Below are positions 1 to 25,259 of a stretch of DNA of 25,320 nt, in pieces. The notes under the pieces are model-generated. The model was not told the DNA's origin and did not search any database. It saw nothing but the letters and a program-made list of their open reading frames with translations. The position numbers were made by a program, and so were the translations under genes. Numbering within the stretch: position 1 is the first letter of the stretch; every line of letters starts with the position of its first letter. The stretch is from a virus (Duplodnaviria; Caudoviricetes), in the IMG/VR virus record IMGVR_UViG_3300030207_000328, positions 1 to 25,320 of that record; one strand, written 5' to 3'.

Positions 1-2167
1 CAACTAATGAATGTTGACCAAGAATACCAGCCATTTGTTTTGTAATCTGTGTAATAGGTGCTAATAAATTAGCTGTATAAAAAACTCTTTTACCTTGTTC
101 ATTTAATTTACTTAATCCTTTAGTAAAAGGTGATCTTAAAAAATCTTCATACATTCTATTCTGTGCTACACCAAGTATCATATCTAATGCTTCACCAGCA
201 ATCTGTACTTCTTTTGCACTTAAACCTAATGCTTTCAAATCAGTAAGACCTTTCAATGTGCCACCTAATTGACCAAGACCTAACGCACCCTGTTTACTTG
301 CGTGTTGCATAATAATCATTCCTAGTTCTGGCAACGACGACAAACCAGCACGACCAAGAAAAGCATATGCTGTCCAATCAGTTAATGCTCTTGATATTCT
401 TCTATTCAAAGCATCAGGTCTTTGTACTGGAGTTCCTACAACACGATCATACATTTGATATAAGTCTTGTTTTGCTTGTGAAATAGTTTGTGCATTATTA
501 CCATGACGAATCATAGCAAGTTCTTCCATATCAACTAGATCATCCATTGACTTACCTTTGAATGTATTTGCAAATTCAATCTTAGAACCAGTTCTCATCA
601 TGTAATACATTGCAGTATCCAATGGATTTATCTCAATAAAATCTAATAACAAATGATTTGGTATATCTAATTCTCTATGTCTAAGATGCTTAGATAAACC
701 ATATCCCATAAAATCATCTTCAAGATTTTGTTTATTTAAAATCCTATCAACTGTTTTGTTTACTGATCTTTCAATATCAGAAGCTGTTGCATTTGGATTC
801 AATGGATTAGCTGTGTACCAATCTCTTAATATTGTTTTAAAACCATCCATATCATTAGCTATTGCATCAATATTAAAGTATCTTGGATAATAAACACCAC
901 GATATTGTGGGTTGTAACCACTTGCTAGTAAATCTTCTGAATCTTTTAATTTACCTCTTTGTTTACCAAGTATTTCTCTAAGCTTAACTTTTGCTCTTGG
1001 ATTTTTTTCTGTTTTTATTTGATTCTTTATGTCGTCGATTGTTGCTTTTAAATTATTAATTTGCCTGGTGATAGAATCTTTTGTAGCAAGTAGTCCATTA
1101 TCAAGCATATCATTTCCATACTTTGTATAGAACAAATCCATTTCATTAATAAACTCTTCTTCATATCTTGATAGTCTTGCTCTGTTAGGTTGTGCTTCTC
1201 TTAATATTCTTTCTCTTGCTAGTCTTTCAGCAAACTCACGAAAACCAGCACTTCCCATTCCTATTGGTTGATTTGTTTGATTCATAAAATTATGATAGAT
1301 ACCATTTAATTTACGAGAGTGAGCATAGTAATCACCCATGTATGTAACTGATCTCATAAATACAGATGATATACCTTGACCAGCTTTATTTAACATCTGA
1401 CTTAATCCACCATCAGCACCAATTTGTGTCATAAACTTTTTTGTAGATGTAGGTAAATCAGCTTGTAATACTCTTTTAAAAGGAGTGCTTACTAATTTAA
1501 AAAAAGGTGAATTAACAAACCAATTATTTGTATAATCAAAAGTACCAGTAGGGTTTACATCTAAACTATTTTGTACTTCTGTTTGTTCACTTACAAATCT
1601 TTGTGAAGCACGACCAGAGAAAGCACCAGTAATACCACCTAATGTTCCAACCAATGCCGTCGACCCAACAATATTAATGCCACTTTCTGTCAAGGTAGCA
1701 TCAGGTTCAAAAGGCGCTCGTATTAATTCTGTACCAGCACCAATAAAAAAACCTGATTTTGCACCTGATAATGCTCTTGCAGTAATACCAATACCTTTGA
1801 ATGGTAATGACAAAAGATTAACTGGATCAAGAATACCAGCAGTAATCATTGAACCCCAGCCACTTCTGCTTAATATTTCTCTGTTCTCACGCATCTTAGA
1901 GGTATGCGTTCTAAGATAGTTCAAATGATCTAATGATCTTGCTTCAGCAAGAAAACTTACTTGATTTCTGTCATCTAAATCTTCAGTAGTTAAATGATCT
2001 AAAACATTAAAATCTTCATCTTCTTCAAAAGAACTGCCATATAATGCACCCATTATTGGTCTATATTGATAGCCATATGTAGCCATCATTCCATCCCAAA
2101 ATGATGGGTCTTGTTCACCCATTGACATACTGTCGTATGCTATTAATGGTCTACCAATATCTACCAT
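1..2167 (-). CDS. Large internal virion (ejection/core) protein, T7 gp16-like position; truncated by window edge
   Basis: Not in the ORF track because it runs off the window. The ATG at 2167 overlaps the TAA of the upstream gene. It reads MVDIGRPLIAYDSMSMGEQDPSFWDGMMATYGYQY... with a Gly/Ala-rich segment (AGILDPVNLLSLPFKGIG). It is third in the series after tail tube B. Confidence 0.65.
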   Translation of the reverse strand, partial: MVDIGRPLIAYDSMSMGEQDPSFWDGMMATYGYQYRPIMGALYGSSFEEDEDFNVLDHLTTEDLDDRNQVSFLAEARSLDHLNYLRTHTSKMRENREILSRSGWGSMITAGILDPVNLLSLPFKGIGITARALSGAKSGFFIGAGTELIRAPFEPDATLTESGINIVGSTALVGTLGGITGAFSGRASQRFVSEQTEVQNSLDVNPTGTFDYTNNWFVNSPFFKLVSTPFKRVLQADLPTSTKKFMTQIGADGGLSQMLNKAGQGISSVFMRSVTYMGDYYAHSRKLNGIYHNFMNQTNQPIGMGSAGFREFAERLARERILREAQPNRARLSRYEEEFINEMDLFYTKYGNDMLDNGLLATKDSITRQINNLKATIDDIKNQIKTEKNPRAKVKLREILGKQRGKLKDSEDLLASGYNPQYRGVYYPRYFNIDAIANDMDGFKTILRDWYTANPLNPNATASDIERSVNKTVDRILNKQNLEDDFMGYGLSKHLRHRELDIPNHLLLDFIEINPLDTAMYYMMRTGSKIEFANTFKGKSMDDLVDMEELAMIRHGNNAQTISQAKQDLYQMYDRVVGTPVQRPDALNRRISRALTDWTAYAFLGRAGLSSLPELGMIIMQHASKQGALGLGQLGGTLKGLTDLKALGLSAKEVQIAGEALDMILGVAQNRMYEDFLRSPFTKGLSKLNEQGKRVFYTANLLAPITQITKQMAGILGQHSLV

Positions 2168-4329
2168 TAAAAACTATATCCAAATTCTTGTGCCTTACTT
2201 AAATCAACATTAAACTGTTCATCAAGTGACATACTGCCAATAGTGTTATTATCTAAGAATTGATACTCTTGTAATTTTTTATTTCTTTGAACAATCATAC
2301 CAGCAAACTCTAAATTCTTTTTAATCATATCTTCATACTGTTTGCTCATTGCACCAGCAAATTCCATAAGTTCAATAGATACCAGTTGATTATCAACAAC
2401 AACTGGGTCTAATGATCCTTCTTCTCCTGTTGCAATATAATATCTTACATTTGAATTTGCTGAATTAGGATCAACAATAACAAATACATTTTCACCTAAT
2501 ACTGGATTTTGTATTCCTGAAAGCTGCTTAACTTTATTTTCAAATGTTTGTAATGCTTCACCAGAAAATACAAGTTCAGGTGCAAATCTTGTTCTTTTAA
2601 CAGTGCCACCAGAGTTCATATCAACAGCATAACTAGATTCAACCCAAGTTCTATTTACAGTATCAGACATAATATTTATGGCTTCTTTTACTGATGATGT
2701 TGCCATTGCCAAAAACATTGTTTCATCAATAACTTCATCTACTATTGATGAATCTTTTATCTTAGAAAATAATTCTTCTTTAATAATATTTTTAATTGTA
2801 CCTACACCATCAATATATTTATCACTTTTTCTACCAAGTTCTATGTTTACATTTGTTTTTAAACGAGCAAATCTTACTTCTTCAGGTTGATTAATAAAAT
2901 CAACAGCTTTTCTTATTCCTTCTATTGTACTATTAAAAGTAAGCATACTATTTAATGCACGCATCTTTGCTGAAACACTATCACTCATACCCATGCCTTG
3001 AGTTAAATCTCTATGCAAACCTGTCGTCGACATATTTCTTGCCATGTTTTGATATATCTCAAGAACAGCAAAAGATTCTTCTGCATCTAAAGTTCCATCA
3101 ACTAGTGCTTGAAATTTATCTTCCATTACCTTTGGTATTTTTCTTTGTTCAGCAAGTATTCTATAAAAATTAATACTATTTGGATTTTTTGAATCAGCTA
3201 ATAAAAGCATTTGATCTTTTGTTGGTGGTATAATTAAACCAGTTTTTGTTGTTTGTAATTCTACACCTGATTTACCAAATACATATTGTGAATAAACACC
3301 CATTTCTTTTTTACCAATATCTATTCTTATTCCTTGATCTAATGCTGATGTAAGATTTCTTGCTATATTTACTTGTTTTAGTGTTTCTTCATATTGTGCT
3401 TGGTTTACTTTAACAGAATTGATTACTCTTTTAATTATTTGATTATCTAATATATGAGGATTATTACTAAGCAATGATTTAATACGATCAAATGATGCAC
3501 CTCTTGAGATCATTGTTTCTGTATCAGGTAGGTCATCTAATTGTTGTTTACCAAAACTATCAGCTACCATTATTATTTCTTCAGAAGAAAGGTTATTTAA
3601 TGCTATACCAATTCTTTGTTCCATTACTCGTCTACGCAATTCTACTATTCTTCTATTGGCTCCTCCTCCAGTTATTACACCTTCATTCACAAGCTCATTA
3701 TATTCATGTTCTATTGTTTGCATTAATTGATTAGCAGTATTAATATCTCCATTTGCAAACGCATTGATAGCTTGATTAGCCATTACTTCAGTTTGTTGAT
3801 CAGTATTTAAAATTAACTGTTCATCTTCTATTTTTTTTGTATTTGCTAATACTGTATTATTTCCTATAGCTATTTTTGCTGTTGCATAATCTGTAAGAAT
3901 ACCTTTCATACTTGGGTCAGCATTGTCTATTAAACCAGCAGTAGCTATTGAAACATCAGTGCTATATTGGTCTGCGTCTGTTGGATTATCTCTTAATGCA
4001 TTTGATATTTTATTGTCTATTAAACTTCTCATATTTGTTTCATATCTACGAAGCATTGTTTGTTCAAATGCTTTTGTACCTATTGTTCCCATAGACAAAG
4101 GTGCTTTTGTTATTTGCATATTTTCATCAAAGACGTCGACAGATAATGCTTTTCTTGTTCCAGCTTCTTTTGCTTCATCAACTGCTTTTTTATAAAACTC
4201 ACCTGATAAAGCTGATGATATTCTTGATATTGTTTCCCAAGTTTCTGACTCTGCTGTTCTTTCTTGTGAACGTACAACACCTACTGGTTTGTTGAATACT
4301 TGGTTTTTAAATCTTTCTATCTTTACCAT
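2167..4329 (-). CDS. Internal virion protein (gp15-like position), 720 aa
   Basis: Long, helical-looking ORF, translationally coupled to both neighbours. Function inferred from synteny with podovirus core genes. Confidence 0.6.
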   Translation of the reverse strand: MVKIERFKNQVFNKPVGVVRSQERTAESETWETISRISSALSGEFYKKAVDEAKEAGTRKALSVDVFDENMQITKAPLSMGTIGTKAFEQTMLRRYETNMRSLIDNKISNALRDNPTDADQYSTDVSIATAGLIDNADPSMKGILTDYATAKIAIGNNTVLANTKKIEDEQLILNTDQQTEVMANQAINAFANGDINTANQLMQTIEHEYNELVNEGVITGGGANRRIVELRRRVMEQRIGIALNNLSSEEIIMVADSFGKQQLDDLPDTETMISRGASFDRIKSLLSNNPHILDNQIIKRVINSVKVNQAQYEETLKQVNIARNLTSALDQGIRIDIGKKEMGVYSQYVFGKSGVELQTTKTGLIIPPTKDQMLLLADSKNPNSINFYRILAEQRKIPKVMEDKFQALVDGTLDAEESFAVLEIYQNMARNMSTTGLHRDLTQGMGMSDSVSAKMRALNSMLTFNSTIEGIRKAVDFINQPEEVRFARLKTNVNIELGRKSDKYIDGVGTIKNIIKEELFSKIKDSSIVDEVIDETMFLAMATSSVKEAINIMSDTVNRTWVESSYAVDMNSGGTVKRTRFAPELVFSGEALQTFENKVKQLSGIQNPVLGENVFVIVDPNSANSNVRYYIATGEEGSLDPVVVDNQLVSIELMEFAGAMSKQYEDMIKKNLEFAGMIVQRNKKLQEYQFLDNNTIGSMSLDEQFNVDLSKAQEFGYSF

Positions 4330-4814
4330 TAATCTTCTCCAACTTTGACTTTATCATATCTCATTATTCCCTCTGTACCAGCACCAACAAGATTTAATAA
4401 TCCTTGTCGTCGTAAAGATTTAGCTCTATCAGTTGCACTTGATACAGCTTCAAACTTTTGAAGATCATAATTTTTTTGAATATTTTTTCCTTGAATAGCC
4501 ATTCTTTCTAAATCAGTTTGCAGTGTAGCAAAGTTATTTTTTTCAAATGCTCTAAATGATGGATCACTTGCATCTCTTCCCATAATACCTCTCATAGCAA
4601 TATTAGATGCCATTGATTGAGTAAAGCCTTGAAGTAATGCAGTTGTTTCTTGTTCAGCAGTAAGTTGTGCTACTTGTTTTTGTTGTTCTATTCTTTCAGC
4701 AGTTCTTTGACCAGCCCTTAGTGCTTCCTTTGCACCAGCCCTTGCTGACATCATTCCACTTACACCTGATGCTACTGTTGTAAATAATAATAATTGTGGT
4801 GACGGAACACACAT
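4329..4814 (-). CDS. Internal virion protein (gp14-like), 161 aa
   Basis: MC- start, hydrophobic Ala/Gly N-terminus, Gln/Ala-rich helix; directly follows tail tube B. Confidence 0.65.
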   Translation of the reverse strand: MCVPSPQLLLFTTVASGVSGMMSARAGAKEALRAGQRTAERIEQQKQVAQLTAEQETTALLQGFTQSMASNIAMRGIMGRDASDPSFRAFEKNNFATLQTDLERMAIQGKNIQKNYDLQKFEAVSSATDRAKSLRRQGLLNLVGAGTEGIMRYDKVKVGED

Positions 4815-6820
4815 TAGAAAGCTACCTCCACTACCATTCCATTTAATTGTAAAGAAACTGGTGCAGTTTGAGTTATTAAAACTCTTGGGTCTGTACTGTA
4901 ACCCAACATTCTAAACTCTTTCTTACCAGTAAATTTTGATAAGCCTTGTGAAAAATCATCAGTTGTACTTTGTAATATCAATGGTACTGCTGTACCACCA
5001 CTACTTACAGATACAGATAATGTATCCACCAGGTCTAAATTAACTCTTGTTATTTGTCTTGGTTCTGCTGTAAGAGGACCACCATCTACTTGTGCATCTA
5101 ATGGAAGAGTAGTTAATACACCAGTATAACCAAAACCAATTTCTGCTGAACTTGTTGTACTAACAGCAGATACATCTATTTGATTTGAACCTTGAGTAAA
5201 GTTTCCAAGATAATCATTTCCAGATACGACGTCGACCTTTGCATTGTTTTCAAAAATTGAATTTGTTGTGAACACTCCATTACTTCCTGAGAAGTCATCA
5301 CTGCAATCTAAAGTAGCTGTATCTAAGAACTCCTCTAACATAAACCTTACAGTACCACCACCTAAATCTCTTTTAGCAACACAAAACAATCGTTCATCAA
5401 TAGTACACATACTGTGAAATCCACCAGTAGTGCCAGTATCAGAGGTTGTCCACAATGTCCACCCAGCCTTTTGTTCATTACGAATTGAGTGAAATACTGC
5501 GATTGTACCATCACTATTAACAAAGAAAGCATAACTTTCAGGTCTTGCCAACGCACCACGCATAGCTGTCATTTGCGTTGGATCGATCACAAGATGTGAA
5601 CTTAATAGTGAAATAGGTGTTGATACATAAGCACTTTCCTCGTCACTAAATACAAACTCTCTTACTGTCTTGCCACCTCTCTGAACATATACTGTAGCAC
5701 CATCAAATGGTGTAGGTCTTACACTTGCACTACCAAAAGGTGTTTGTCGTCGTATCTGTGCATTAGTTGGTGTTAATGCACTGCTTGAAAATGATGGTAT
5801 AAAAAATTCAGAAGTGCTTGTGAACACTTGCAAATCTCGTGAACTTGTTAAATGTTTGATAGAGTTAAACTCACCAGCACTTATTGCAAACTGTATGCTC
5901 TCATTTGATTGTGCTGTACCAACATCAAAGTTAAAAAACTCTGAAGTTTTCGACGACCATATTCCATCAGGTTGACTTGTTGTACCAGCAAACCAAAGTC
6001 TATCTTCATGGAATGTAACAGCACTTGGAAAACCTCTAAGTGTAGAGTAAGATTGTTCATCCCAATCTGTATCAGCAGTTGTGCCACTTAATGTTTTTCT
6101 TATAGTACCTCTTGCAACAGTTGTACTATCAACAGCAGTTATAAGTATTTCATTTCCTTTATATCTTACAATAGTACCAACATGACCACTTTCCCAATAA
6201 GCAGAAGATGTTGTCATTGTTTTATCTGTACCAGAAGTAGCTTGAGGAGTAAGAGTTACACCACTTTCTTGAAATGCAAAATATGGTTGGAATTTTTCAT
6301 CATTAGCTGTTGTTTCATCAAATGCAAACTTTCTTACTTCAAATGTTGTAAGTCCAGTTCTAACTATTCTCATTTGTATATGAGAACTATGAGCAACAAA
6401 CATATTATCAGCAGACTGTGCTATAGTTTGATGTTCTATTGTATCAACAGTCCAAGGCAATGCTGTACTATCTGTATCTGCTGTTAATGCTTGGATATGA
6501 GATATTGCACCAGTTGATGCAACTATACGAAAGAAGTCACATCTACCAGCACTAAATGCTACAATATATCTTTCGTCGTCAGAAAATAAAAATGGTTCAA
6601 TCTTTACTTGTAATCTTTTTGCATTGTCTACTGTGATAGTAGTAAACTTATGAATAAACTCTGTGCCTGGTCTACGTTTAACTCCACCCTCTGCCATAAG
6701 AAAAAAGTTTCTACACTTCTCTGCTGATTGAACATAAACATTCAAATCAGTTCTTGATGTCATTGATGGTGAAACTTCACCTCTTTCAAAGTTGTTGAGA
6801 GGTACACGAATACGAGCCAT
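4814..6820 (-). CDS. Tail tubular protein B / nozzle (T7 gp12-like), 668 aa
   Basis: N-terminal NF..GEVSP...R.D and N......GG..RRPGT motifs, FHEDRLWFAG beta-propeller repeats; follows tube A. Confidence 0.85.
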   Translation of the reverse strand: MARIRVPLNNFERGEVSPSMTSRTDLNVYVQSAEKCRNFFLMAEGGVKRRPGTEFIHKFTTITVDNAKRLQVKIEPFLFSDDERYIVAFSAGRCDFFRIVASTGAISHIQALTADTDSTALPWTVDTIEHQTIAQSADNMFVAHSSHIQMRIVRTGLTTFEVRKFAFDETTANDEKFQPYFAFQESGVTLTPQATSGTDKTMTTSSAYWESGHVGTIVRYKGNEILITAVDSTTVARGTIRKTLSGTTADTDWDEQSYSTLRGFPSAVTFHEDRLWFAGTTSQPDGIWSSKTSEFFNFDVGTAQSNESIQFAISAGEFNSIKHLTSSRDLQVFTSTSEFFIPSFSSSALTPTNAQIRRQTPFGSASVRPTPFDGATVYVQRGGKTVREFVFSDEESAYVSTPISLLSSHLVIDPTQMTAMRGALARPESYAFFVNSDGTIAVFHSIRNEQKAGWTLWTTSDTGTTGGFHSMCTIDERLFCVAKRDLGGGTVRFMLEEFLDTATLDCSDDFSGSNGVFTTNSIFENNAKVDVVSGNDYLGNFTQGSNQIDVSAVSTTSSAEIGFGYTGVLTTLPLDAQVDGGPLTAEPRQITRVNLDLVDTLSVSVSSGGTAVPLILQSTTDDFSQGLSKFTGKKEFRMLGYSTDPRVLITQTAPVSLQLNGMVVEVAF

Positions 6821-7434
6821 TAGACATTACTCGATAGTGTACCAGTTGTCCTTCTTGATGTAACAAAACGATTAGTAGAAAGTCTAAGAGTTGTCTGCTG
6901 TTGGCTATCAAGTGTTCTTGCTTTCTGCATAAAGAACCTTGCTTTCTCAAACATATTGTTAGACATACTATCATTTCTTGCTAGTGCTAATGCAAAGTGT
7001 CCAGACAGTTCATAGACGACAGCTTGTACAAAGTATGCTGGGAACTTAGCTTCTAATTGTCTAAAGTTATAATCTATGACGACGACATCATTAACACTTG
7101 CATCATTGAAGATAAAGTTACCATAAATCTGATAGTCAATATTTCTATCATTTACTGTAACAGCATTTATCATTAATGAGTCAGAAGGTATTTGGTAAGC
7201 TGAATTATATCTACCAGTTGGTTCATCTGATAGTCTGTTACCTATTGCTTGGTTTACTGCAAATCTCCATCTTGTATTTACAAGACTAGCTTGAATAGTA
7301 TCTTCATAAAGATTAACAGCAACCAATGCTTCGTTTGATCCATCACTAAAAGAAGTAATTGGTTGTGCGCCAATCAACACCAGTGACCGAGTACATATAT
7401 CGATAGGAGATGTCGCTGATGTTGATTGACTCAT
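6820..7434 (-). CDS. Tail tubular protein A / adaptor (T7 gp11-like), 204 aa
   Basis: IDIC..SL..IGA.PI.S, W.FA and Y.IP.D motifs typical of the family; position after the capsid genes. Confidence 0.85.
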   Translation of the reverse strand: MSQSTSATSPIDICTRSLVLIGAQPITSFSDGSNEALVAVNLYEDTIQASLVNTRWRFAVNQAIGNRLSDEPTGRYNSAYQIPSDSLMINAVTVNDRNIDYQIYGNFIFNDASVNDVVVIDYNFRQLEAKFPAYFVQAVVYELSGHFALALARNDSMSNNMFEKARFFMQKARTLDSQQQTTLRLSTNRFVTSRRTTGTLSSNV

Positions 7435-7439
7435 ATTAT

Positions 7440-7706
7440 TTAGTCGCCATCTGTTTCTGCAACAGCAGTTCCGTCTGAAACGTCAACTACTGTACCAGTG
7501 TTTGAAAGCACGGTACAAAAATTTGTTGTTGGAGTATTAGTATCCATAACAATAATTAAGTCCCTTACGTTCAACATATTAGCAGAGTTATTAAAATAAC
7601 CAGCACTGTTAACAGTTGCGATTGTATCTGTGGTTTGATAAATCCAAAGATTTACTCCACTAGCACCACCTATTCGGTGTAATCCAGTTGCACTATAAGC
7701 CATCAT
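7440..7706 (-). CDS. Small virion protein, possible capsid decoration protein
   Basis: Strong RBS (AGGAGG), directly downstream of the major capsid gene, beta-rich composition. The start could be 7703. Confidence 0.55.
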   Translation of the reverse strand: MMAYSATGLHRIGGASGVNLWIYQTTDTIATVNSAGYFNNSANMLNVRDLIIVMDTNTPTTNFCTVLSNTGTVVDVSDGTAVAETDGD

Positions 7707-7713
7707 CTACCTC

Positions 7714-16232: not shown

Positions 16233-16233
16233 A

Positions 16234-17050: not shown

Positions 17051-17437
17051 CTAAGTAAGATCGATCTGTACCTTAATTTCACCAGCGTGTAGGTGCATAT
17101 GTTTATCTGGTGCTTTGAATCCAGCTCTATCAAGGATATCTTTACTTGCTTCAAGCTGGACATACTCACTTTTAGCACCGCTGGCTAGCTTAACAAGCTT
17201 TGCACTAGCTAACGTAGCATTAACACCCAATGATTCTGTTATTCGTTTCATCATGTACTCTTGCACATGAGGTAGTCGCAAAGCTTTGCTAGCCGTGACT
17301 CTCCCAGAGTCACCACTAGCGTAGCCAGCTTCTTGGCTGGCTTTAGCTATACTACAACCTTCTGCTACGAGTGTATCAACTAAAAGCATCTGTTTCTTTG
17401 TCAAAGGTCGACGACCATTGTCTAAATCTGAACTCAT
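17051..17437 (-). CDS. terS: Terminase small subunit, 128 aa
   Basis: LT.KQ...V, A...AGYA....TASK.LR.P.V HTH and SE.V.L.AS.DILDRAG motifs; RBS AGGGGG. Confidence 0.8.
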   Translation of the reverse strand: MSSDLDNGRRPLTKKQMLLVDTLVAEGCSIAKASQEAGYASGDSGRVTASKALRLPHVQEYMMKRITESLGVNATLASAKLVKLASGAKSEYVQLEASKDILDRAGFKAPDKHMHLHAGEIKVQIDLT

Positions 17438-17455
17438 GACAACCCCCTAGTCCCC

Positions 17456-17485
17456 CTAATACTTCATCAAAATACTACTTGTCAA
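17456..17485 (-). promoter_or_regulatory. Putative sigma70-type promoter for terS
   Basis: Perfect TTGACA (17485-17480), 18-nt spacer, TATTAG, just upstream of the terS RBS. Confidence 0.45.
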
Positions 17486-17560
17486 CCTACAATTATAGGC
17501 TTGGCTTGCCAGGGGCAAGCTAGTCTTATTGTTGGTTGCTAAGCCTAACCAAAGTTGCGT

Positions 17561-18736
17561 CATGATTAATAGAGCCACCTCTAAGGCAGACTAGGTTTGT
17601 GACCAAGCTTCCGCATCAATATCGTCGACTTCCTTACTTGTTCTAACAATTAGACGCCTTTGCTTTTTCGTGTGCCAACCTTTACCAACTAGAGGTTCTT
17701 ATATACCTCAAGATCAGTGGTGTTTGACATCAAGGCGCTCCTTTCACTGTTCTCCAACTACGGCAAGCATAGACATCTGAGGATGCCTAACATCCTGTCC
17801 AGAGCATATCACGCGTAGGAGTTTGTCACGAACCTCAGAGATATGACCAGTCTAACATTGTACACTGTCATCAGAAGTGAAGCACGCGTAAGACTCTATC
17901 TATTAATTATCTGAGACATGAGTGAAACTTCCACAATGCTAGTTTTTTAGTACTAAAAGGGCATACTAAAAACATAACTGCAATTTTAGAATCTAATAAG
18001 TTCTAAAGCATTTCGCACTTTTTTCAGACATTTTGAGTCTCCTACGATTTGGCTAAAATGCAACCCTTTCGCGAGGATCATGCTGTCAACATCACATATC
18101 ATTCGCACGCTTTCAAGTTTGTCCGTACCACCCATAGCCTAACTTGAAAGCGCGTTGATGTATGCTGTTCGCTAGTGATATGACTGACGTCATGGCGAAC
18201 AGTAGCTTCTATGTACGAATGATATGTCATGCCGTCATCATGATGCGAAAGCATTACATTTTAACCAAATAGGAGACTAGAAAATGTCTAAAAAAAGCAC
18301 AAAATACAAGAACTTAGTAGATTCTAAAATCGCAGTTATTAACTACCATTCTGGAGATTCACTAACATATCTCAGAGAATCAATAGCTAGAGACGCGTGC
18401 TACACTTCTGCTAACAGCATACAATATAAGTCTGATCAAATCTCTGAGAACCGAGACAAACTTGCAGACCTACGCGAGACATACTCTGGACAGGAAGTCA
18501 TCCATGTTCAGATGTCTAAACTAGCCTACGTCATTGGAGAACAGCAAAAGGAGCTTTCAGAACTTGATGACAGACACCAAGCTGATCTCGAGGTATATAA
18601 GAAATTAGTTGGTAAAGCTTGGACTCAAAATGCAAAGTCATCTAATTCCAAGAACAAGCTAGCGGAACTCGACGAGATTGATGCTTTATTGAAAGCTTAA
18701 TCACAAACCAATTCTCCCTAAGAGGTGGTAATCATG
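17561..18736. repeat. Giant imperfect inverted repeat (arms ~17561-18108 and ~18213-18736)
   Basis: Hand alignment shows the reverse complement of the left arm is colinear with the right arm throughout. Shared blocks include GAGGTATATAAGAA, TAGATTCTAAAAT, CTCTGGACAGGA, TAGTTGGTAAAG, TAGGAGACT and AGAGGTGG. Confidence 0.95.
18284..18700 (+). CDS. First early gene, coiled-coil protein of unknown function, 138 aa
   Basis: RBS AGGAG at 18271, intact ORF, followed by an intrinsic terminator; forms the right arm of the inverted repeat. Confidence 0.8.
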   Translation: MSKKSTKYKNLVDSKIAVINYHSGDSLTYLRESIARDACYTSANSIQYKSDQISENRDKLADLRETYSGQEVIHVQMSKLAYVIGEQQKELSELDDRHQADLEVYKKLVGKAWTQNAKSSNSKNKLAELDEIDALLKA

Positions 18737-18750
18737 CCACCTCTTTTTTT
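18721..18750 (+). terminator. Rho-independent terminator
   Basis: AGAGGTGG-taatcatg-CCACCTCT followed by a T tract. Confidence 0.8.
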
Positions 18751-18790
18751 ATGCTTATCAACCACTTACTGTATCAACAAGGAGGTACAT

Positions 18791-18970
18791 ATGTTCGAAA
18801 TTATTATTACATTAACTTGTGGTCGTCGTCAAAAACTGTCATCTAAATATTACTATTTCAATCATGCTGTTAGACGTATGAACCACTACAAAAATTATCT
18901 ATCAACAAAATCTAGATATTACCAAAACAAAATCAAATATATCGACATAAAATACAACCATCAATTCTGA
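18791..18970 (+). CDS. Hypothetical basic protein, 59 aa
   Basis: AGGAGG RBS before the ATG at 18791; the longer start in the ORF track overlaps the terminator. Confidence 0.55.
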   Translation: MFEIIITLTCGRRQKLSSKYYYFNHAVRRMNHYKNYLSTKSRYYQNKIKYIDIKYNHQF

Positions 18971-19063
18971 TATAACAAATCGCAAACGACGTAGCGTGTT
19001 GTTACAGCAGTAGCAATAGCCGTCGTTGTAATCATCAATAACAATTCAAATCAAGGAGAAAAA

Positions 19064-19261
19064 ATGACACAAGAAAAAACACTAGATGATTTTACAATCT
19101 ATGTAATGTATTGCCAAGACATGAATGATCTTAACTTTGATACCATGACAATGGAAAGGTACATAAGATTATTCAATGCTGGTAAATTTGTAGATACTAA
19201 ACACATAATCTTGCAAGACATAGAAGTTGCAAGAGCAATGTGTAGGATGAACGCATCATGA
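19064..19261 (+). CDS. Hypothetical protein
   Basis: AAGGAG RBS; coupled to the next ORF. Confidence 0.6.
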   Translation: MTQEKTLDDFTIYVMYCQDMNDLNFDTMTMERYIRLFNAGKFVDTKHIILQDIEVARAMCRMNAS

Positions 19262-19494
19262 GTAGGATGGGTCAAATCAAACTAGCTGGATGGTTGAGCA
19301 TACCATTATGTATTGCAATCATATATGTAATACACAGCTTTCCACAAATGTTTCCCTATCATGGCATATGGCAAATCGTTATAGCTGGGGTAGCATTAAA
19401 TACAATAGTTCATTTAACAATAACAATTCCAAGATGGGAGAAAGACAATGAGCAAAGCAGATCAAATTGTTCAAATCATTATCAAAAAAATTGA
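19258..19494 (+). CDS. Small two-transmembrane hypothetical protein
   Basis: ATGA overlap; two hydrophobic segments. Confidence 0.55.
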   Translation: MSRMGQIKLAGWLSIPLCIAIIYVIHSFPQMFPYHGIWQIVIAGVALNTIVHLTITIPRWEKDNEQSRSNCSNHYQKN

Positions 19495-20329
19495 AGACGG
19501 CATTGATAACAAATGGCAAATGCCCTGGCATAATCGAGACTTTAGATTTCCAATCAACACTGATGGCTATGAGTATCAAGGATTGAATTGCTTTTGGCTT
19601 TGGATGGTCAAAGATATGCGAGGTTATACCAGTAATCAATGGGGTACATACAACCAATGGAAACAAATTGGTGGTGATGTCGGAGGTCAGTCAGCAACTG
19701 CATACAATCAATACATATTGCAACCAAGAATCGGCACTGACGACGACGATAATGTATTCATCAAGGGCTTCAAGACTTGGGCTGTCTTCAATCGCGATCA
19801 AGTCAAAGGCTTACCTAAACTGCAATCAGAACAATCATTTGTTACAGAAGAAATGATAACCGATAAAGCAATCAAACAGCAGTGCATCAACTGGTTCGCA
19901 AACATACCAGCAACAATTCATACTGGTCACAACAAAGCCTGTTATGTTCCATCAAAAGATGAAATCCGTATGCCTGACTTTGATACATTCAGAACAGACA
20001 TTGATTATTATTCTGTACTGGCACATGAGATTATACATTGGACAGGTGCGGACCAAAGACTAAACAGAAAGCTATCACAAGAAAGACAATCATATGCTTT
20101 CGAAGAATTGGTTGCTGAACTTGGCAGTGCATTGATAGCTGCAAATTTAAAGATCCAATCTAAACCAACAGACAATACAACTGCTTACCTCAAAGGCTGG
20201 TTACAAGCAGTTAAAAAGAAACCAAAGACACTATGGGATGCAATGTCTTTGGCTAAACACGCAGTCTCTTTTCTCAATGATTATCAACGCAAGAATATTG
20301 CAAGATCATTGCAGAAAAAGGTTGCATAA
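19448..20329 (+). CDS. ardC: ArdC-like antirestriction protein (ssDNA-binding N-domain plus zincin-like metallopeptidase domain)
   Basis: W.MPW, Y.G.N...LW, W.TY.QW...GG, VFN.DQV.G, ACY.P..D.I.MP, AHEIIHWTG (HExxH) and YAFEELVAELGSA motifs. Confidence 0.88.
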   Translation: MSKADQIVQIIIKKIEDGIDNKWQMPWHNRDFRFPINTDGYEYQGLNCFWLWMVKDMRGYTSNQWGTYNQWKQIGGDVGGQSATAYNQYILQPRIGTDDDDNVFIKGFKTWAVFNRDQVKGLPKLQSEQSFVTEEMITDKAIKQQCINWFANIPATIHTGHNKACYVPSKDEIRMPDFDTFRTDIDYYSVLAHEIIHWTGADQRLNRKLSQERQSYAFEELVAELGSALIAANLKIQSKPTDNTTAYLKGWLQAVKKKPKTLWDAMSLAKHAVSFLNDYQRKNIARSLQKKVA

Positions 20330-20387
20330 TCTATTGCGTTCATGCAATAATATATAACACTTTGATAAATATAGAGGAGAATAACGA

Positions 20388-20654
20388 ATGAATTTATCAA
20401 ATAGCGAAGCCATGACGGCTGACAATATCTTAAATCAAATAGCAAACAAAGTTGTTGACTCAATGAAAACTGAGTTTGGTAACTCACCTATCGAATGTCT
20501 TAGGTTTATTCAAAGTCTAAGAGATAGAGGTATTGAGATTACAAACTCAAGTCCAATCGGTGTGTTTGAAGTTGAATGTAACAATATACTTGATGCTCTT
20601 GCTGAAGAAGCTGAAGCAAAAGCAATCATGGCAAATAAAGATGGAGGTTACTAA
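20388..20654 (+). CDS. Hypothetical protein
   Basis: GAGGAG RBS; intact ORF. Confidence 0.6.
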   Translation: MNLSNSEAMTADNILNQIANKVVDSMKTEFGNSPIECLRFIQSLRDRGIEITNSSPIGVFEVECNNILDALAEEAEAKAIMANKDGGY

Positions 20655-20896
20655 TGGGTAAGGTCGTCGACATAGGTGCTAAAGAAACCTTAAAAGAAAT
20701 ATCTGTAAGTCTTAACTGTAGGATTAAACTCAAGATATATCTTACAAGAGATAAAACTACACCAGGCTTTTACAAACTGGCTGAGAATGAGTTGGTCAAT
20801 ATTAACAGACTCATTGAAGATTACATGAAAGGTAATATGTATGAGGTCCAGCAGTTTCATTGGTATGTAGATCAGGAGGAAGTCAATGGCTCGTAA
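20654..20896 (+). CDS. Hypothetical protein
   Basis: GGAGG RBS; TAATG coupling. Confidence 0.6.
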   Translation: MGKVVDIGAKETLKEISVSLNCRIKLKIYLTRDKTTPGFYKLAENELVNINRLIEDYMKGNMYEVQQFHWYVDQEEVNGS

Positions 20897-21092
20897 TACA
20901 CCAACTGAAATACTAGACAATATTAAAAAACTTTTAGTAAAAGATATTATAAATCTTTGGGATACTGCAAACATAAATAATAATGCAGTTTCCAATATTA
21001 AAAGTATAGCACCATCAGTAAGAAACTTTGAGTTTGATATTAAACTAAAACTTCTTACTAAAATAGTAGATATGGAGGTGAGTGATGGTTAA
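20886..21092 (+). CDS. Hypothetical protein
   Basis: AGGAGG RBS; overlaps its neighbours. Confidence 0.55.
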   Translation: MARNTPTEILDNIKKLLVKDIINLWDTANINNNAVSNIKSIAPSVRNFEFDIKLKLLTKIVDMEVSDG

Positions 21093-21303
21093 TTGTACTA
21101 AACAAAGCGACATCAAAATTGAAGTCGTATGGGGTATGGATAACAACGACACCAGCGAATATCATTTCGAAAGCGAAAAAGAAAAGACTGCTTTTGTTGA
21201 TGGAATTAATGAAGCAGTAGGCTGGCATGATTGTGTTGTATGTGGTGATGGTTATGAATATTCATCAGCAGAAGAATACTTAAAGGAGATGGATGATGAG
21301 TAA
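21085..21303 (+). CDS. Hypothetical acidic protein
   Basis: GGAGGT RBS; Y.F.S..E..AF..GI.EA.GW motif. Confidence 0.6.
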   Translation: MVNCTKQSDIKIEVVWGMDNNDTSEYHFESEKEKTAFVDGINEAVGWHDCVVCGDGYEYSSAEEYLKEMDDE

Positions 21304-21538
21304 AGATAAACCAGCTACTGTATATTATATCCCAGCTACAAGATTTCTTGGTATTCAATTAGATTTTGCATCTAAATTGATGGAAGAAAAATATGGTTTG
21401 ACTTGTTTAGAAAAAACAGAATGTGGACATTATAAATATACAGACATTCATCAAGATATATTTAATGAAATCTATGATGATGTTGAAAGTATTTTAGAAA
21501 AAAATAATGTCTATAAAAAAGATTCTCAATGTCCATAA
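21293..21538 (+). CDS. Hypothetical protein
   Basis: AAGGAG RBS; intact ORF. Confidence 0.55.
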   Translation: MMSKDKPATVYYIPATRFLGIQLDFASKLMEEKYGLTCLEKTECGHYKYTDIHQDIFNEIYDDVESILEKNNVYKKDSQCP

Positions 21539-21574
21539 AATGTAGGATACCTATGGTGGTACTACCATTGAGAT

Positions 21575-21617
21575 ACACAACCAACACGGCTAACCCAAAC
21601 AAGCCGTGTGGTTGTGT
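21575..21617. other. Intergenic stem-loop (terminator or processing site)
   Basis: ACACAACCA-a-CACGGCT pairs with AGCCGTG-TGGTTGTGT: 16 bp with one bulge. Confidence 0.6.
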
Positions 21618-21646
21618 TCATTGCGTTAATGCAGTAAGGTGTGATT

Positions 21647-21886
21647 ATGAATAGTTATATAGTTGAATTAATAAGAATATCTAGGAAGATAGATATATCT
21701 TTGATACAAGCATGGAAACACTCAGGCATTGATATGTCTACATATTATCGTGCAATCAATGGTGCTGAGTTGAAACACGCAACAGCTTTAAAGGTTGAAG
21801 ATGCACTTTACTCATTACAAAAGGCCAGTAAAAATAACAGAGAACTGGCAAAAAATTATAAACGATTTAAAAAAATATCGAAATAA
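21647..21886 (+). CDS. Putative HTH DNA-binding protein
   Basis: L..AW..SGI..STYYR.ING....TA.KV pattern resembles a Cro/XRE-like HTH. Confidence 0.6.
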   Translation: MNSYIVELIRISRKIDISLIQAWKHSGIDMSTYYRAINGAELKHATALKVEDALYSLQKASKNNRELAKNYKRFKKISK

Positions 21887-22082
21887 AAAAGGTATGAGCC
21901 AAGAAGCATTAGCTGGTGAAATGGGTATCGAACCAAGTCTAATGCAGAAATGGGAAACATTTAAGAGAGTGCCATCAGGATTTATGTTTAGTTGCTGGCT
22001 TGATGCACTTGAATTAGGAATAACAATTCAAACTATTGGAGGTGCGAATGTCAAACGAAAAGAACAAAGGAAGTTACCATGA
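21801..22082 (+). CDS. XRE-family HTH transcriptional regulator
   Basis: LKKYRNKKGMSQEALAGEMGIEPSLMQKWETFKRVPS is a canonical HTH_3 pattern. Confidence 0.85.
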   Translation: MHFTHYKRPVKITENWQKIINDLKKYRNKKGMSQEALAGEMGIEPSLMQKWETFKRVPSGFMFSCWLDALELGITIQTIGGANVKRKEQRKLP

Positions 22083-22419
22083 AAGATGGTGGGTAAATCT
22101 TTTTAATAGCTGGGGATGGAGTGCAAAACGACAGCCATTATCAGGTGCATTAAAAGATTATCCAAGTGATATTGATTTGAATGTCAATATATTTGGAGAT
22201 GGTAATTACATAACATCAATACAGTTATTATGCGAAAGCAAATACAGACATAATGGTTTTGCTTTGATCTCAAAATATCTTGGAAAAAAAAATAATAATT
22301 ATGATAACGATTTACTTTTGTTGAAGCAAAAGAATGGTGAAGCATTTATGTGTTTCAATGTGAAGAATACAAAAGTATTACACCTGGTCAGATTTCAAAC
22401 AGAGGAGAATGAAAATTGA
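22048..22419 (+). CDS. Holliday junction resolvase-like PD-(D/E)XK nuclease
   Basis: KG...ER, R.PLSGA, SDI and ESK motifs; GGAGG RBS before the ATG at 22048. Confidence 0.75.
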   Translation: MSNEKNKGSYHERWWVNLFNSWGWSAKRQPLSGALKDYPSDIDLNVNIFGDGNYITSIQLLCESKYRHNGFALISKYLGKKNNNYDNDLLLLKQKNGEAFMCFNVKNTKVLHLVRFQTEENEN

Positions 22420-22610
22420 GAGATACTTATAATGGTTTAACAAATAATTTTATTGAAGAACTTGAAGAGTTCTTGAATGAAAAGTTTGATGGCGAATGGG
22501 AAATGAACTTTCAAGTAGATGGTAGAGCAATCGATATAAGACTATTGATGTCACCAGAAGAAAGAGTCGTCGTCAAAAAAGGAAATGTAATTCAATTATT
22601 TCCTAAATAA
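22416..22610 (+). CDS. Hypothetical protein
   Basis: TTG start with a GAGGAG RBS; C-terminal NVIQLFP motif. Confidence 0.55.
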   Translation: MRDTYNGLTNNFIEELEEFLNEKFDGEWEMNFQVDGRAIDIRLLMSPEERVVVKKGNVIQLFPK

Positions 22611-22646
22611 AAAACCCTCATGGAGAGGGGATACAATCCATGAGGG
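22609..22646 (-). terminator. Intrinsic terminator oriented on the minus strand
   Basis: Perfect 10-bp stem CCCTCATGGA/TCCATGAGGG (22615-22646). The A-run on its left reads as a U-tract on the minus strand. Confidence 0.55.
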
Positions 22647-22718
22647 AGTATTCAGTAGAGGATAACGAATAATCTATATGTACCAATACAAACCATACAA
22701 TGTCAAGAGGTAAACGAT

Positions 22719-23378
22719 ATGAGTTTCAAAAGAGTCTCAGCAGTTATGGATATTGAACTATCAGATGGTCTTGCAAAGTGGGTACTTGTAACACTTGCGC
22801 ATCATGAGAACAGCAATACTGGACACTGCTTTCCATCAATAGATAGGCTAGTAAAACTAACTGGTTTATCAAGAAGTACAGTAATCAGATGTTTGAAAAA
22901 GCTGGTTGATCTCAGGTTAATACACAAACATCCTGATCGTGGTAAGTCTAATCATTACGAATTTCTTTTTGAATACAAAGTCATCAGAAAGAACCAGTGT
23001 CAGAGTGACACTACACCAGTATCAGACAGACACCCTAATAGAGAAGTAATAAAGAAAGTCGTCGATACAGAACAGCAGAAAGATGTATGGAAACAATGGA
23101 TGCCATCTGATGCTGAGAAAGAAATCCTTAACAATGAATTTGGAGAGATAGATCATGCCAAAGAAATTATCAAGTATAAAAAATATTATGCCAACTCAAC
23201 AATCGCAGTACCATTCAAGCACTACAGAAGCTGGTGTCAAAGAGTCGCAGAGTTCGCTGGAGTTAACAGAGAGGGAAAACAAGTATTACCTAGTGTCCAA
23301 ACTGGAAGGAGGAAATCCAATCGCAATAGACAAAGAAGTTCGCTTGTCAGTGTTATTAGAACTATCAGGAATGATTGA
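22719..23378 (+). CDS. Phage replication initiator (N-terminal winged HTH, lambda O-like organisation)
   Basis: AK.VL..LA.......CFPSI.RL...TGLSRSTV.R.L..L (HTH_36-like), SN.Y motif, internal iterons. Confidence 0.78.
   Translation: MSFKRVSAVMDIELSDGLAKWVLVTLAHHENSNTGHCFPSIDRLVKLTGLSRSTVIRCLKKLVDLRLIHKHPDRGKSNHYEFLFEYKVIRKNQCQSDTTPVSDRHPNREVIKKVVDTEQQKDVWKQWMPSDAEKEILNNEFGEIDHAKEIIKYKKYYANSTIAVPFKHYRSWCQRVAEFAGVNREGKQVLPSVQTGRRKSNRNRQRSSLVSVIRTIRND
22993..23033. repeat. Two 19-bp iteron-like direct repeats (putative origin)
   Basis: ACCAGTGTCAGAGTGACAC (22993) and ACCAGTATCAGACAGACAC (23015), 22-bp period, inside the initiator gene. Confidence 0.6.
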
Positions 23379-23825: not shown

Positions 23826-24698
23826 ATGAACCGAAAAGGTACAATCGGTGGCTCAGACGTCGCCAAATTACAAGACCCCAACAACTGGTTTGAAATGTGG
23901 GAGATCAAGACTGGTCGTAAGCAGTCACCTGATCTTTCAGATGTATTACCAGTAGCTATGGGTGCAACAACTGAAGCATTGAATCATGCTTGGTTTAGAA
24001 AACATATGACAGGTGGCAATGAAGAAATGATGCACAGTATATTCTATGAAGAACGTACTGAGTATTGGCAACCAAAGAAAGTAGATCAGACTTTATCATT
24101 GCAGCTTTTTGATGATCCTGATGTTATCGTTGCTAACATTGATTGCATCTATGCTTCCAATGATGAAAGTAATTTTGATACTTACTTAGTTGAGTTCAAA
24201 CATACTCATGCAAATAACAGATTAGATAATGTATGTAGTGACTATATGCCACAGATACAATTCTATCTCAATGTAGCTAAGATTGAAAAAGCATATCTAT
24301 CTGTATTGTTTGGTAACAACAGACATGAAGTTTGTTGGATAGGTAGGAGTAGAGAATACTTTGATAAGACTATGATCAATGTCAAAAACTTTTGGGCTTA
24401 TGTTAGAGATGATACACCACCACCAATGGAACAAGTTGCAATCAAAGAAGTATCTGTTGATAAAGTTATTGTCGACGGCTTGATTGCTAGAGATGTAAGT
24501 AAAAGTAATTCATTTACATCAAGTGCAGATATATATGCAAGTACATTGGTATCAGCAAAAGCAAATGCAGAAGCAAAGAAATCACTTCTTGAAGAGTTGA
24601 AAGATACAGATAGAGAAGTTTACAATGACCAGGTGAGAGTTTACAGAACTAAGAATGGTCGGAGAGTTGCTCTCCAAAACAAACTGGATGTAGCATGA
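23826..24698 (+). CDS. YqaJ/lambda-exonuclease family recombination nuclease, 290 aa
   Basis: R...IGGSD, W..KTG, G...E, ANID, VEFK and Y.PQIQ.Y motifs. Confidence 0.88.
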   Translation: MNRKGTIGGSDVAKLQDPNNWFEMWEIKTGRKQSPDLSDVLPVAMGATTEALNHAWFRKHMTGGNEEMMHSIFYEERTEYWQPKKVDQTLSLQLFDDPDVIVANIDCIYASNDESNFDTYLVEFKHTHANNRLDNVCSDYMPQIQFYLNVAKIEKAYLSVLFGNNRHEVCWIGRSREYFDKTMINVKNFWAYVRDDTPPPMEQVAIKEVSVDKVIVDGLIARDVSKSNSFTSSADIYASTLVSAKANAEAKKSLLEELKDTDREVYNDQVRVYRTKNGRRVALQNKLDVA

Positions 24699-24755
24699 GG
24701 AAACAAATGCTACACCCAATCATATTTTCAAAATCATTTCATGGGAGAAATTATA

Positions 24756-25259
24756 ATGAATGATAAAAAACCTAATATAACACAACCGAAAAAGCAACAG
24801 ACAATTGCTCCAAAAAATATTGATGAAGCAATGTTGTTATTTCAACAAGACAATATTACTGCAACCAAGTCTACCAAAAATCCTTTTTTCAAAAGCACAT
24901 ATGCTAGTCTTGAAGAAGTGATGAAGGCTTGTGATCATGGTAACAAATATGGAATACTGTATGGTTATCAATCAAGAGTTACAGAAACTGGTAATCTAAT
25001 TATCATTGCTACTGCTACTCATGTTCCTAGTGGCACAAGCAAAGAACTACCAGTTCCATGTCTTGTACCTAACTTGCATGATCCTCAAAAGCTGGGGTCA
25101 GCTATCACATATGCAAAGCGATATGCTCTGCAAGCATTGTTTGCATTGCCATCAGAAGATGACGACGGCAACAAAGCAAGTGGTATTACTGTACCAACTG
25201 GTAAAGTACAACCAAAACAACCACAATCATCTAACAAAAAGACAGGAGATTTTGCATGA
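24756..25259 (+). CDS. erf: ERF-family single-strand annealing protein
   Basis: K...NPFFKS.YASLE, H..SG and PQ.LGSAITYAKRYAL.A.F.L..EDDDGN motifs. Confidence 0.9.
   Translation: MNDKKPNITQPKKQQTIAPKNIDEAMLLFQQDNITATKSTKNPFFKSTYASLEEVMKACDHGNKYGILYGYQSRVTETGNLIIIATATHVPSGTSKELPVPCLVPNLHDPQKLGSAITYAKRYALQALFALPSEDDDGNKASGITVPTGKVQPKQPQSSNKKTGDFA

Follow-up and report, generated by a model that had tools for sequence, protein, structure and literature searches.

An evenly spaced palindrome array within the genes of a clade of uncultured marine short-tailed phages and a predicted MerR-like protein that may read it

Dense, even palindromes selected inside genes are known from the cyanobacterial HIP1 motif, the job of which is still debated. 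Chi-like sites are by definition non-palindromic and strand-polarised, and virion nick motifs of the T5, tf and phiKMV type are asymmetric motifs on one strand. Stoperators are asymmetric and oriented and lie mostly between genes, and pSK1 Par binds clustered direct repeats. According to the accessible text of the respective reports, the binding sites of D29 Gp36 are direct repeats (PMC12266134), and RacA from Bacillus subtilis is a small MerR-like winged-helix protein that nucleates at ram sites and then coats the DNA (PMC4914108). The ram site TGACGCCGGCGTCA is described in that text as being 14 bp long with a 4-bp spacer and the half-site TGACG, it is present as about 25 dispersed sites, and the terminal TpG steps are read by an Arg (PMC4914108). 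Elhai's ratchet model, as set out in the available part of the source, leads from a methylated core through wrong-ended 7-mer intermediates to the full palindrome, with saturation near one site per kb (PMC4390886). The restriction enzyme Hpy99I recognises CGWCG, and M.Hpy99I is listed in the accessible text as an m4C enzyme (PMC3936762).

The stretch of DNA analysed here (the window) comprises 25,320 nucleotides. The initial annotation had reported 33 loci of an over-represented (GWC)n motif (GWCGWCG or CGWCGWC), all of which were recovered by a merged regex scan with identical starts, and a CG-poor background, which agrees with a CpG observed/expected ratio of 0.45. The enrichment survives the synonymous-codon null model that the annotation had named as a possible refutation: the 33 loci compare with a mean of 5.3 (maximum 10) in 300 shuffles within genes and of 3.4 (maximum 9) in 300 genome-wide shuffles. 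While the enrichment was confirmed, the repeat nature was not, as the unit is a 9-bp palindrome, G-N-CG-W-CG-N-C. Full GNCG(W)CGNC palindromes occur at 20 loci compared with 0.6 under the null model (maximum 2 in 60 shuffles) and copies with one mismatched end at 14 compared with 5.4, while mismatches within the CG pairs are at background level (8 and 6) and the bare CGWCG core without the ends is not enriched (3 vs 6.5). The palindrome of the clade, GNCGNCGNC, has 9 bases and is found about once per kb, mostly within genes; the extended form of 9-11 bp reads (T)GNCGWCGNC(A), with the half-site TG(A/T/C)CG and T at position -5 in 40-78% of the sites. In the window the core occurs 22 times as CGACG and 20 times as CGTCG, with no CGSCG, and the centre base of full sites is T/A in 12/8 cases (16/18 in the relative G006). 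The use of different reading frames was seen correctly: the 42 CGWCG start at codon position 3 (23), position 1 (10) or position 2 (6) or are intergenic (3). The shuffles, the palindrome null and the conservation at synonymous positions described below support the earlier proposal of a DNA-level signal overlaid on coding sequence, and on sequence grounds the array is best read as genome-wide and under selection.

The whole array (333..25169, unstranded) contains the 20 full sites and the 14 copies with one end mismatch, about one per 750 bp, and 32 of the 34 lie within ORFs. The full sites in the first half are GCCGTCGAC in the internal virion protein gene (1656..1664; kept in G006, G007, G008 and L105), GTCGTCGAC at 3023..3031 and 8953..8961, GACGTCGAC at 4132..4140 and in a tail gene (5228..5236), GACGACGAC at 7078..7086, GACGTCGGC in the major capsid gene (7834..7842; kept also in the distant G001) and GTCGACGGC at 10284..10292. 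These are followed by GACGACGGC in the portal gene (12734..12742), GTCGTCGAC at the end of the terminase gene (13293..13301; kept in 7/7 motif-bearing records covering the position), GTCGACGAC in the terminase (14086..14094) and in the small terminase gene (17407..17415), GACGTCGCC at 16780..16788, GTCGTCGTC at 18822..18830 and 22566..22574, GACGACGAC in the ArdC gene (19739..19747), GTCGTCGAC at 20663..20671, GACGTCGCC in the YqaJ exonuclease gene (23856..23864), GTCGACGGC at 24471..24479 and GACGACGGC at 25161..25169. The last one is kept also in G001 and lies in the ERF gene, which together with the start of an SSB-like gene occupies 24741..25320 on the plus strand. The 14 weaker copies with one wrong end base (333..23066, unstranded) have 9-bp frames starting at 333, 1031, 4406, 5746, 5949, 6572, 10779, 11588, 13005, 15488, 16838, 17621, 19019 and 23058, of which the copy at 19019 is a further site beyond the 33 regex loci.

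The even spread that had been remarked on is borne out, with a coefficient of variation (CV) of the gaps of 0.54 compared with 0.97 for random placement; none of 20000 draws was as low, and the value is below that of all 370 control 5-7-mers with a similar count. Gaps between full sites in the window range from 559 to 2694 bp, none being shorter than 400 bp where 5.2 are expected, and their CV is 0.39-0.63 across the window, G006, G007, G008 and G001 (P ≤ 0.008 each). The weaker copies tend toward the gaps between full sites (mean distance to the nearest full site 581 bp, P = 0.03). The locus L087 tolerates a 4.7-kb stretch free of sites, and helical phasing at 10.5 bp was looked for and not found. 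Third-position identity to G007 is 63/73 (0.86) within sites vs 572/1018 (0.56) at other codons ending in C or G, and for G008 the values are 57/65 vs 444/824. In G007, G008 and L005 a site is retained at position 14086 or a few bases away from it, over a different peptide (DVENY vs TVVDY). Only 7 of the 33 sites mapped in G001 are common to the window, and site positions differ between subclades while the density stays constant.

Judged by the sequences compared, the array marks a single clade among uncultured marine short-tailed phages. It is present in 9/80 relatives by portal protein, all at a portal identity of at least 86%, and 18 low-GC motif-negative loci have 1 site in 150 kb. Five related isolates matching the tail-fibre or portal protein have 0-1 sites each, and Hodr has none. 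When loci of at least 9 kb were scanned de novo for 7/8-mers and dyads, no comparable motif outside the clade was among the matches listed. A lineage motif considered for Hodr was rejected, as its GCSGC excess reflects Ala-Ala recoding (39/43 in frame 1); a CCCGA excess in L012 and L055 is clustered. Matches in sequencing runs came solely from metagenomes of marine or estuarine origin and from one coded organism. A literature search largely confined to non-subscription papers found no paper on the motif in phages or on Hodr.

A candidate for the protein that reads the sites is encoded some 360 bp beyond the end of the window, in the DNA-metabolism arm, as judged from the near-identical locus L082 (96.8% identity to window positions 19375-25320), which contains a predicted 86-aa MerR/Xis-type winged-helix gene there (L082:6297-6554); the copy of G006 is at L114:13555-13812. 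The family HMM finds 15 loci at E<1e-35, all of them motif-bearing, with the next match at E 0.26; the IMG/VR loci with the gene are motif-bearing in 17/17 cases, and L487 carries a 37%-identical copy together with the motif. As this co-occurrence is confined to a single clade it counts as one event. Absence of the gene was checked in the more distant negatives, the nearest ones (portal identity 79-81%) not covering the region, and the distribution of the gene is shared by a basic ORF of 290 aa and by three small ORFs. The predicted structure (pLDDT 79) best matches the DNA-binding domain of pSK1 Par (8csh; probability 0.99, Z 7.0, rmsd 1.9, 53 aligned residues), followed by RacA (5i44; probability 0.95, Z 6.4, rmsd 3.2, 60 aligned); it also matches BldC, the best VIA matches are mostly MerR-type, and the ESM Atlas gave 0.93 to a cluster of which 40% is HTH_17. 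With weak Foldseek E-values (0.15-0.8), Z below 8 and no PDB match found at sequence level, the protein is predicted to be a MerR-like winged helix of the RacA/pSK1 Par type as a fold class only. This is a common small fold that is shared with Xis, BldC and GlnR. Family members have 86-107 aa, Arg45 in the predicted recognition helix is invariant, and the modelled chain finishes with a short basic tail. The gene may also be an ordinary regulator, as this place is occupied by other genes of HTH-like appearance in several motif-negative relatives.

The sites are possibly docking points for this 86-aa protein and form a selected genome-wide array, a reading to which we give a probability of roughly 40%. 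That the protein reading the sites is encoded by the phage itself is probable; that it is the 86-aa protein has slightly less than an even chance. We infer that its job is architectural rather than that of a transcription roadblock. The phage would keep (T)GNCGWCGNC(A) about once per kb throughout its genome, the protein would nucleate at each site and then spread, and the spreading protein would coat the phage DNA during replication, compact it or tether it. Selection would act on the coverage of the genome by sites, and a site would outlast the CpG loss of the phage only if there is no other full site within a few hundred bases; this would account both for the lack of short gaps and for the scarcity of long ones. 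The protein would be expected to prefer TGTCGTCGACA over TGTCGTAGACA or a scrambled control. The broader idea is more tentative, namely that lytic marine podoviruses of one clade carry in their coding DNA a private 'chromosome organisation code' that spaces itself and is read by one minimal RacA-like protein, and that the resulting phage nucleoid sets viral DNA apart from host DNA. Such a nucleoid would serve compaction, tethering or nuclease shielding and would be a centromere-type system stretched genome-wide, without a ParA, SMC or methylase partner.

An unlikely alternative is that a host protein reads the sites and that the phages of that one host are selected to carry them every kb, either as a self-mark against a nuclease or defence translocase or for a host nucleoid, partition or import protein. 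The restriction to a single clade could as well reflect a single host, and the clade strongly avoids GCNGC, GGCC and CCGG and encodes the anti-restriction gene ArdC, which indicates real host pressure on the DNA sequence. However, five swapped tail-fibre modules, presumably derived from phages that infect the same or similar hosts, have 1 site in 14,618 bp compared with 19.6 expected, and among 163 IMG/VR loci chosen for one motif copy the only low-GC enriched ones are two clade members. The array was also found in no sampled bacterial genome. In two class-level sets of 301 genomes each, one around a MAG titled Rhodobacterales and the other around a MAG titled Gammaproteobacteria, tallies that include the genomes G255, G055, G354, G611 and G456, none reaches the site density of the phage: the top GTCGWCGAC density in the former is 144/Mb vs 237/Mb in the window, and TGTCGWCGACA reaches at most about 5/Mb in the latter vs 79/Mb. 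Neither set gave a host. From the first 301 bacteria 14 were followed up; all have 46-70% GC, and the raised density of two of them reflects GGCGGC-type runs, one stretch being a prophage. Eight matches on cellular genome contigs look like mis-binned phage contigs and are uninformative on the host. A cellular CGWCG excess does exist in five Pacearchaeota-like contigs with no phage in view, but their flanks differ from those of the phage, with G at -4 at 0.31 vs 0.70.

A HIP1-type ratchet is a minority rival that is still live, at odds slightly lower than those of a host reader. A host CGWCG/CGNCG methyltransferase (MTase) together with a methyl-directed repair nickase would fix sites where none is present within about 1 kb, and the array would be a by-product or a strand-discrimination aid. 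A pattern that tolerates wrong ends but not a changed core, and a density close to 1/kb, match Elhai's model, 7-mer intermediates with wrong ends are seen in the window next to the full palindrome, and a CGWCG m4C enzyme is available in M.Hpy99I. G001 encodes a C5-type MTase (phrog_757), the only MTase found and one present in no fetched locus outside G001. Against the ratchet, divergence at fourfold sites shows no consistent drop at distances of up to 200 bp from full sites (2/24 relatives at P<0.05; 0/24 using all sites) and is not lower but goes the opposite way in G007 and G008; an apparent gradient against G006 (0.028 to 0.081) was lost under fourfold-site and shift controls. In the G001 group 31% of the sites have S at the centre, which would require a second enzyme, the donor modules are without sites and no array-bearing host was found. 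No MTase was seen in G007, and neither MTase family nor motif in the 99%-complete G006, which also leaves a methylation mark of the phage unsupported.

It is improbable that a virion or late protein reads the sites and condenses the DNA for packaging or ratchets its ejection. The candidates are the 290-aa ORF (15435..16307, minus strand), low in complexity, rich in lysine and arginine and found only in motif-bearing records, and, as the weaker one, a 231-aa ORF (16234..16929, minus strand). Both adjoin the terminase genes, and every motif-bearing record that covers the region has them, but the 231-aa family is also found in the motif-negative L063 and has 46 representatives library-wide; its model is of low confidence (pLDDT 56) and gave no Foldseek match, and no homolog was found in isolate phages. 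The 290-aa protein would be a poor sequence-specific reader because it is of low complexity and its sequence changes fast (30-67% identity) with the motif remaining constant. About as improbable is that the 86-aa protein blocks or times transcription throughout the genome, in the manner of mycobacteriophage stoperators or D29 Gp36. MerR-like phage proteins repress genes downstream of intragenic GC-rich sites according to the accessible text (D29 Gp36; PMC12266134) and the gene lies in the DNA-metabolism arm, but the sites show no link to promoters or gene starts and shift between genes across subclades, and repression does not need even spacing. Among the functions offered in the initial annotation a nucleoid-type protein site fits best, whereas a Chi-like role fits poorly, the sites being palindromic without strand bias or a robust divergence halo.

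If the docking reading is true, small phages that lack a polymerase of their own use a sequence-specific architectural protein to organise their DNA, and a positional code is carried by synonymous codon choice in phage genes. The phage has 33 kb and about 60 genes, and with a candidate reader named, the motif, the reader and the spacing rule are directly testable in it. The motif also serves as a clade marker and as a flag for recently swapped modules.

Compared with known systems, the sites differ from Chi-like sites and virion nick motifs in being symmetric, present in both orientations and unbiased in the T/A centre. They share the 5-bp core with Hpy99I, whereas the core alone is not enriched in the window, and Hpy99I restriction is a poor fit because a restriction site would be avoided and not hoarded. 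The likeness to pSK1 Par (8csh) and, in the accessible text, D29 Gp36 is that of a single small element-encoded MerR-like protein that binds its own DNA at several sites (PMC12266134), as the phage candidate would. In contrast to the sites of Gp36, stoperators and pSK1 Par, those of the phage are palindromic, unoriented, coding and evenly spaced, with 32/34 within ORFs and turnover of positions instead of oriented or direct repeats tied to transcription units. As in HIP1, as far as described in the available text, a GC-rich palindrome is iterated in all frames at about 1/kb, is over-represented and conserved beyond codon needs and has its near-misses mostly at the first or last base (PMC4390886, PMC5861425, PMC13756078). 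HIP1 is described in these parts as chromosomal, 8 bp long and even-centred, with orphan methyltransferases and a periodicity reported at tens of kb, whereas the phage array is the trait of a phage clade with local under-dispersion, an odd centre, no host copy found and no MTase in the close complete genomes. With RacA and ram, on the evidence of the accessible text, the phage shares a GC-rich palindrome with TG...CA ends and the half-site TGACG, and the predicted fold of the candidate matches the RacA domain (Z 6.4-7.0 overall, fold class only). The half-site spacer is 4 bp in ram and 1 bp in the phage, and the form with the 4-bp spacer, GNCG-N4-CGNC, is absent from the window (0 vs 0.2 under the null model). 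The phage protein is without the long linker and the C-terminal oligomerisation or anchoring domain, and, as far as that text describes them, ram sites cluster around the origin, whereas the phage sites are tiled at about 1 kb through the coding DNA of a 33-kb phage.

All 33 GWCGWCG/CGWCGWC loci listed in the initial annotation are present at their places and their over-representation survives a synonymous-codon null, the test named there as capable of refuting it, as shuffles give 3.4-5.3 loci with a maximum of 10 (600 shuffles). While the enrichment stands, the proposed (GWC)n unit does not: on dissection it is a 9-bp palindrome, G-N-CG-W-CG-N-C. Full palindromes occur at 20 loci (0.6 expected) and copies with a single wrong end 14 times (5.4 expected), while inner-mismatch copies are at background (8 vs. 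6.8 and 6 vs. 4.2 expected) and the bare CGWCG core is not enriched in the window (3 vs. 6.5 expected). T is preferred at position -5 (in 53% of the window's sites and 78% of those in the group of the more distant relative G001), and CpG observed/expected outside the sites is 0.35. The sites occur in both orientations and, as had been claimed, in all three reading frames. The fairly even spread was likewise borne out: full-site gaps range from 559 to 2694 bp, none is below 400 bp in the window (5.2 expected), and five records have gap CVs of 0.39-0.63; with the motif taken in a looser 7-mer definition, 0/370, 1/377, 0/494, 0/385 and 3/349 control words match or beat its CV.

The array is real, evenly spaced and under selection. 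Compared with the relatives G007 and G008 (~85% DNA identity to the window), conserved codons match at the third position at a fraction of 0.86-0.88 in sites, against 0.54-0.56 in other C/G-ending codons. This excess is weaker at greater distance (sites vs. other codons, 0.50 vs. 0.45 in G004 and 0.33 vs. 0.44 in L006), fading in distant motif-bearing records because the sites have moved. Only 7/33 mapped sites in G001 and 5/14 in G004 are shared with the window at unchanged overall density, and the site at 14086 is retained although the peptide changed; coverage is conserved, site position is not.

Among 80 portal relatives, the nine with at least 86% identity are enriched and the 71 with at most 81% are not; 18 low-GC negatives together hold a single site in 150 kb. 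Near-complete genomes contain 33 (the 99%-complete close relative G006), 23 (G007) and 23 (G001) copies of GHCGNCGDC, the G001 group tolerating C/G at the centre, while Hodr has no site and HTVC131P, CRP-1, HMO-2011, MEP301 and Kolga have 0-1. In five contigs of the motif-bearing clade, DNA not alignable to G006 carries one site in 14,618 bp (19.6 expected), a count leaving out four contigs with <700 unaligned bases (0 sites) and the unalignable DNA of G001 (7 sites/10 kb); the three contigs with ORFs listed have tail-fibre-like content there. Three pattern scans of IMG/VR yielded 199 loci, of which 163 were 2 kb or longer; the five with the strongest enrichment were two members of the clade and three large genomes of 43-50% GC that share no protein match with it. 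In the motif-negative relatives L012 and L055/L112 (G005), CCCGA/TCGGG is over-represented and clustered, possibly through recoding imposed by avoidance of a site. A GCSGC excess in Hodr (L081, OQ414635; 43 vs. 3 GCWGC) was rejected as an enriched motif, as 39/43 are in-frame Ala-Ala, a recoding artefact.

The fragment (25.3 kb, 35.6% GC) derives from an uncultured podovirus, with internal virion proteins, tail tubes, capsid, portal and both terminases in the left arm and ArdC, two HTH genes, a RusA-like resolvase, an O-like initiator, a YqaJ exonuclease and ERF in the right. Among isolates, Pelagibacter phage Hodr is closest to it (65% in the terminase, 66% in the portal), and sequencing runs containing its DNA are marine or estuarine metagenomes. 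GANTC is scarce in the window (48 vs. 84.5 expected), which is compatible with an alphaproteobacterial host. GCNGC (5 vs. 33), GGCC (1 vs. 22) and CCGG are strongly avoided window-wide, likewise in G006, G007, G008 and G001; CATG avoidance in the window (67 vs. 126) is far weaker than in G007 (7 vs. 141) and G008 (15 vs. 104), which suggests that host restriction sets differ inside the clade. Relatives also appear as contigs L119-L126 within GTDB genomes whose titles name Gammaproteobacteria, Methanobacteriota, Rhodobacterales, Neomarinimicrobiota, Flavobacteriales and Halobacteriovorax; these are probably viral contigs assigned to the wrong bin. The full ArdC (ArdcN and zincin domain; 19448-20329, +), here in a small podovirus, is common to Hodr, L012 and L125 and not found in records G616-G620. 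The window is 97-99% identical to G006 except for mosaic blocks, 11-28% divergent, at 2000-4000 (internal virion protein) and 15500-17000 (290-aa and 231-aa genes). Two small ORFs at 10936-11378 lack a counterpart in G006, G007 and G008; the C-terminal AGPKGFTKRKR of one reappears in the 290-aa ORF (GGPKGFSRK, AGPKGFTRK).

Restricted to motif-bearing records are this 290-aa basic ORF (15435..16307, -), a pair of small membrane-like ORFs, and ORFs of 78 and 86 aa. A DUF6378 gene likewise has no match in motif-negative records, though its family is a wide one, and the 231-aa ORF (16234..16929, -) is also present in motif-negative L063. The latter, with 46 family representatives library-wide, has a conserved LGxFxVxxxxxGYxVxDTYDF stretch, whose DxYDF run may resemble the colicin M catalytic motif; its low-confidence model gave no fold match. 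The 86-aa gene follows an SSB-like gene just past the window end and is present in near-identical contigs (L082:6297-6554; G006 copy L114:13555-13812). All 17 IMG/VR loci carrying it are motif-bearing, and its HMM has no match in Hodr or G616-G620. The protein is predicted to adopt a MerR/Xis-type winged helix, with the DNA-binding domains of pSK1 Par and RacA as top matches. RacA binds TGACGCCGGCGTCA, an arginine reading the terminal TpG, and then coats DNA (PMC4914108). The half-site is identical to that of the phage, whereas the spacer is 4 bp in RacA and 1 bp in the phage. This modelled likeness is no more than suggestive: the fold is common and Z is <8, the co-occurrence of gene and motif amounts to a single evolutionary event, and the closest motif-negative relatives do not cover the locus.

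A phage-encoded reader is plausible, and we assign a probability of about 0.4 to the 86-aa protein as reader with DNA coating as function. Expressed from the DNA-metabolism arm, it would dock as a dimer on each palindrome and spread several hundred bases, so that sites ~1 kb apart would suffice to coat the whole genome; a site close to another would be redundant and decay through CpG loss. The coated DNA might be compacted, tethered or marked as self.

That the host encodes the reader is unlikely. No host array was found in two bacterial class samples (301 genomes each, tallies that take in five unpublished genomes as counts). Host-side explanations are kept alive, against a purely phage story, by a metagenome scan (80/118 loci examined, 36 of <42% GC), in which five contigs of 30-31% GC (L422, L394, L361, L386, L348) have CGACG/CGTCG as top over-represented 5-mer (7-22 vs. 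0.4-3.4 expected), the one motif copy for which loci were chosen being subtracted before counting. L394, the only one typed, is Pacearchaeota/Nanoarchaeota by homolog names. Unlike in the phage, the core itself is enriched in these Pacearchaeota-like contigs; G at -4 reaches 0.31 vs. 0.70 in the phage, spacing is mixed (CV 0.35-1.1), CGSCG is rare and the context is a loose TTTSTCGWCGASAAA. It appears to be a HIP-like signal in its own right, possibly an undescribed one of DPANN archaea; literature searches turned up no report of it.

Somewhat less probable still is that the sites arose by an Elhai-type methylation-repair ratchet, for which the model predicts the same site anatomy (PMC4390886); however, no protective halo was seen around sites and neither a methyltransferase nor a host array was found. 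The methyltransferase that the initial annotation had suggested seeking elsewhere in the genome was not seen in G006 (Pfam/PHROG scans of window genes and extra G006 ORFs; motif scan). Among all fetched loci, only G001 has one, a 211-aa phrog_757 DNA methyltransferase encoded by an insertion that follows the RusA-like gene (L109:13219-13851), in the subclade with C/G tolerated at the motif centre. We give little credence to a virion protein as reader, and least to the sites acting as a transcription roadblock.

The over-represented oligomers tabulated in the supplements of PMC4390886 are cyanobacterial only. Among known systems, the phage array would resemble RacA/ram in its proposed working and resembles HIP1 in anatomy, and is a member of neither.
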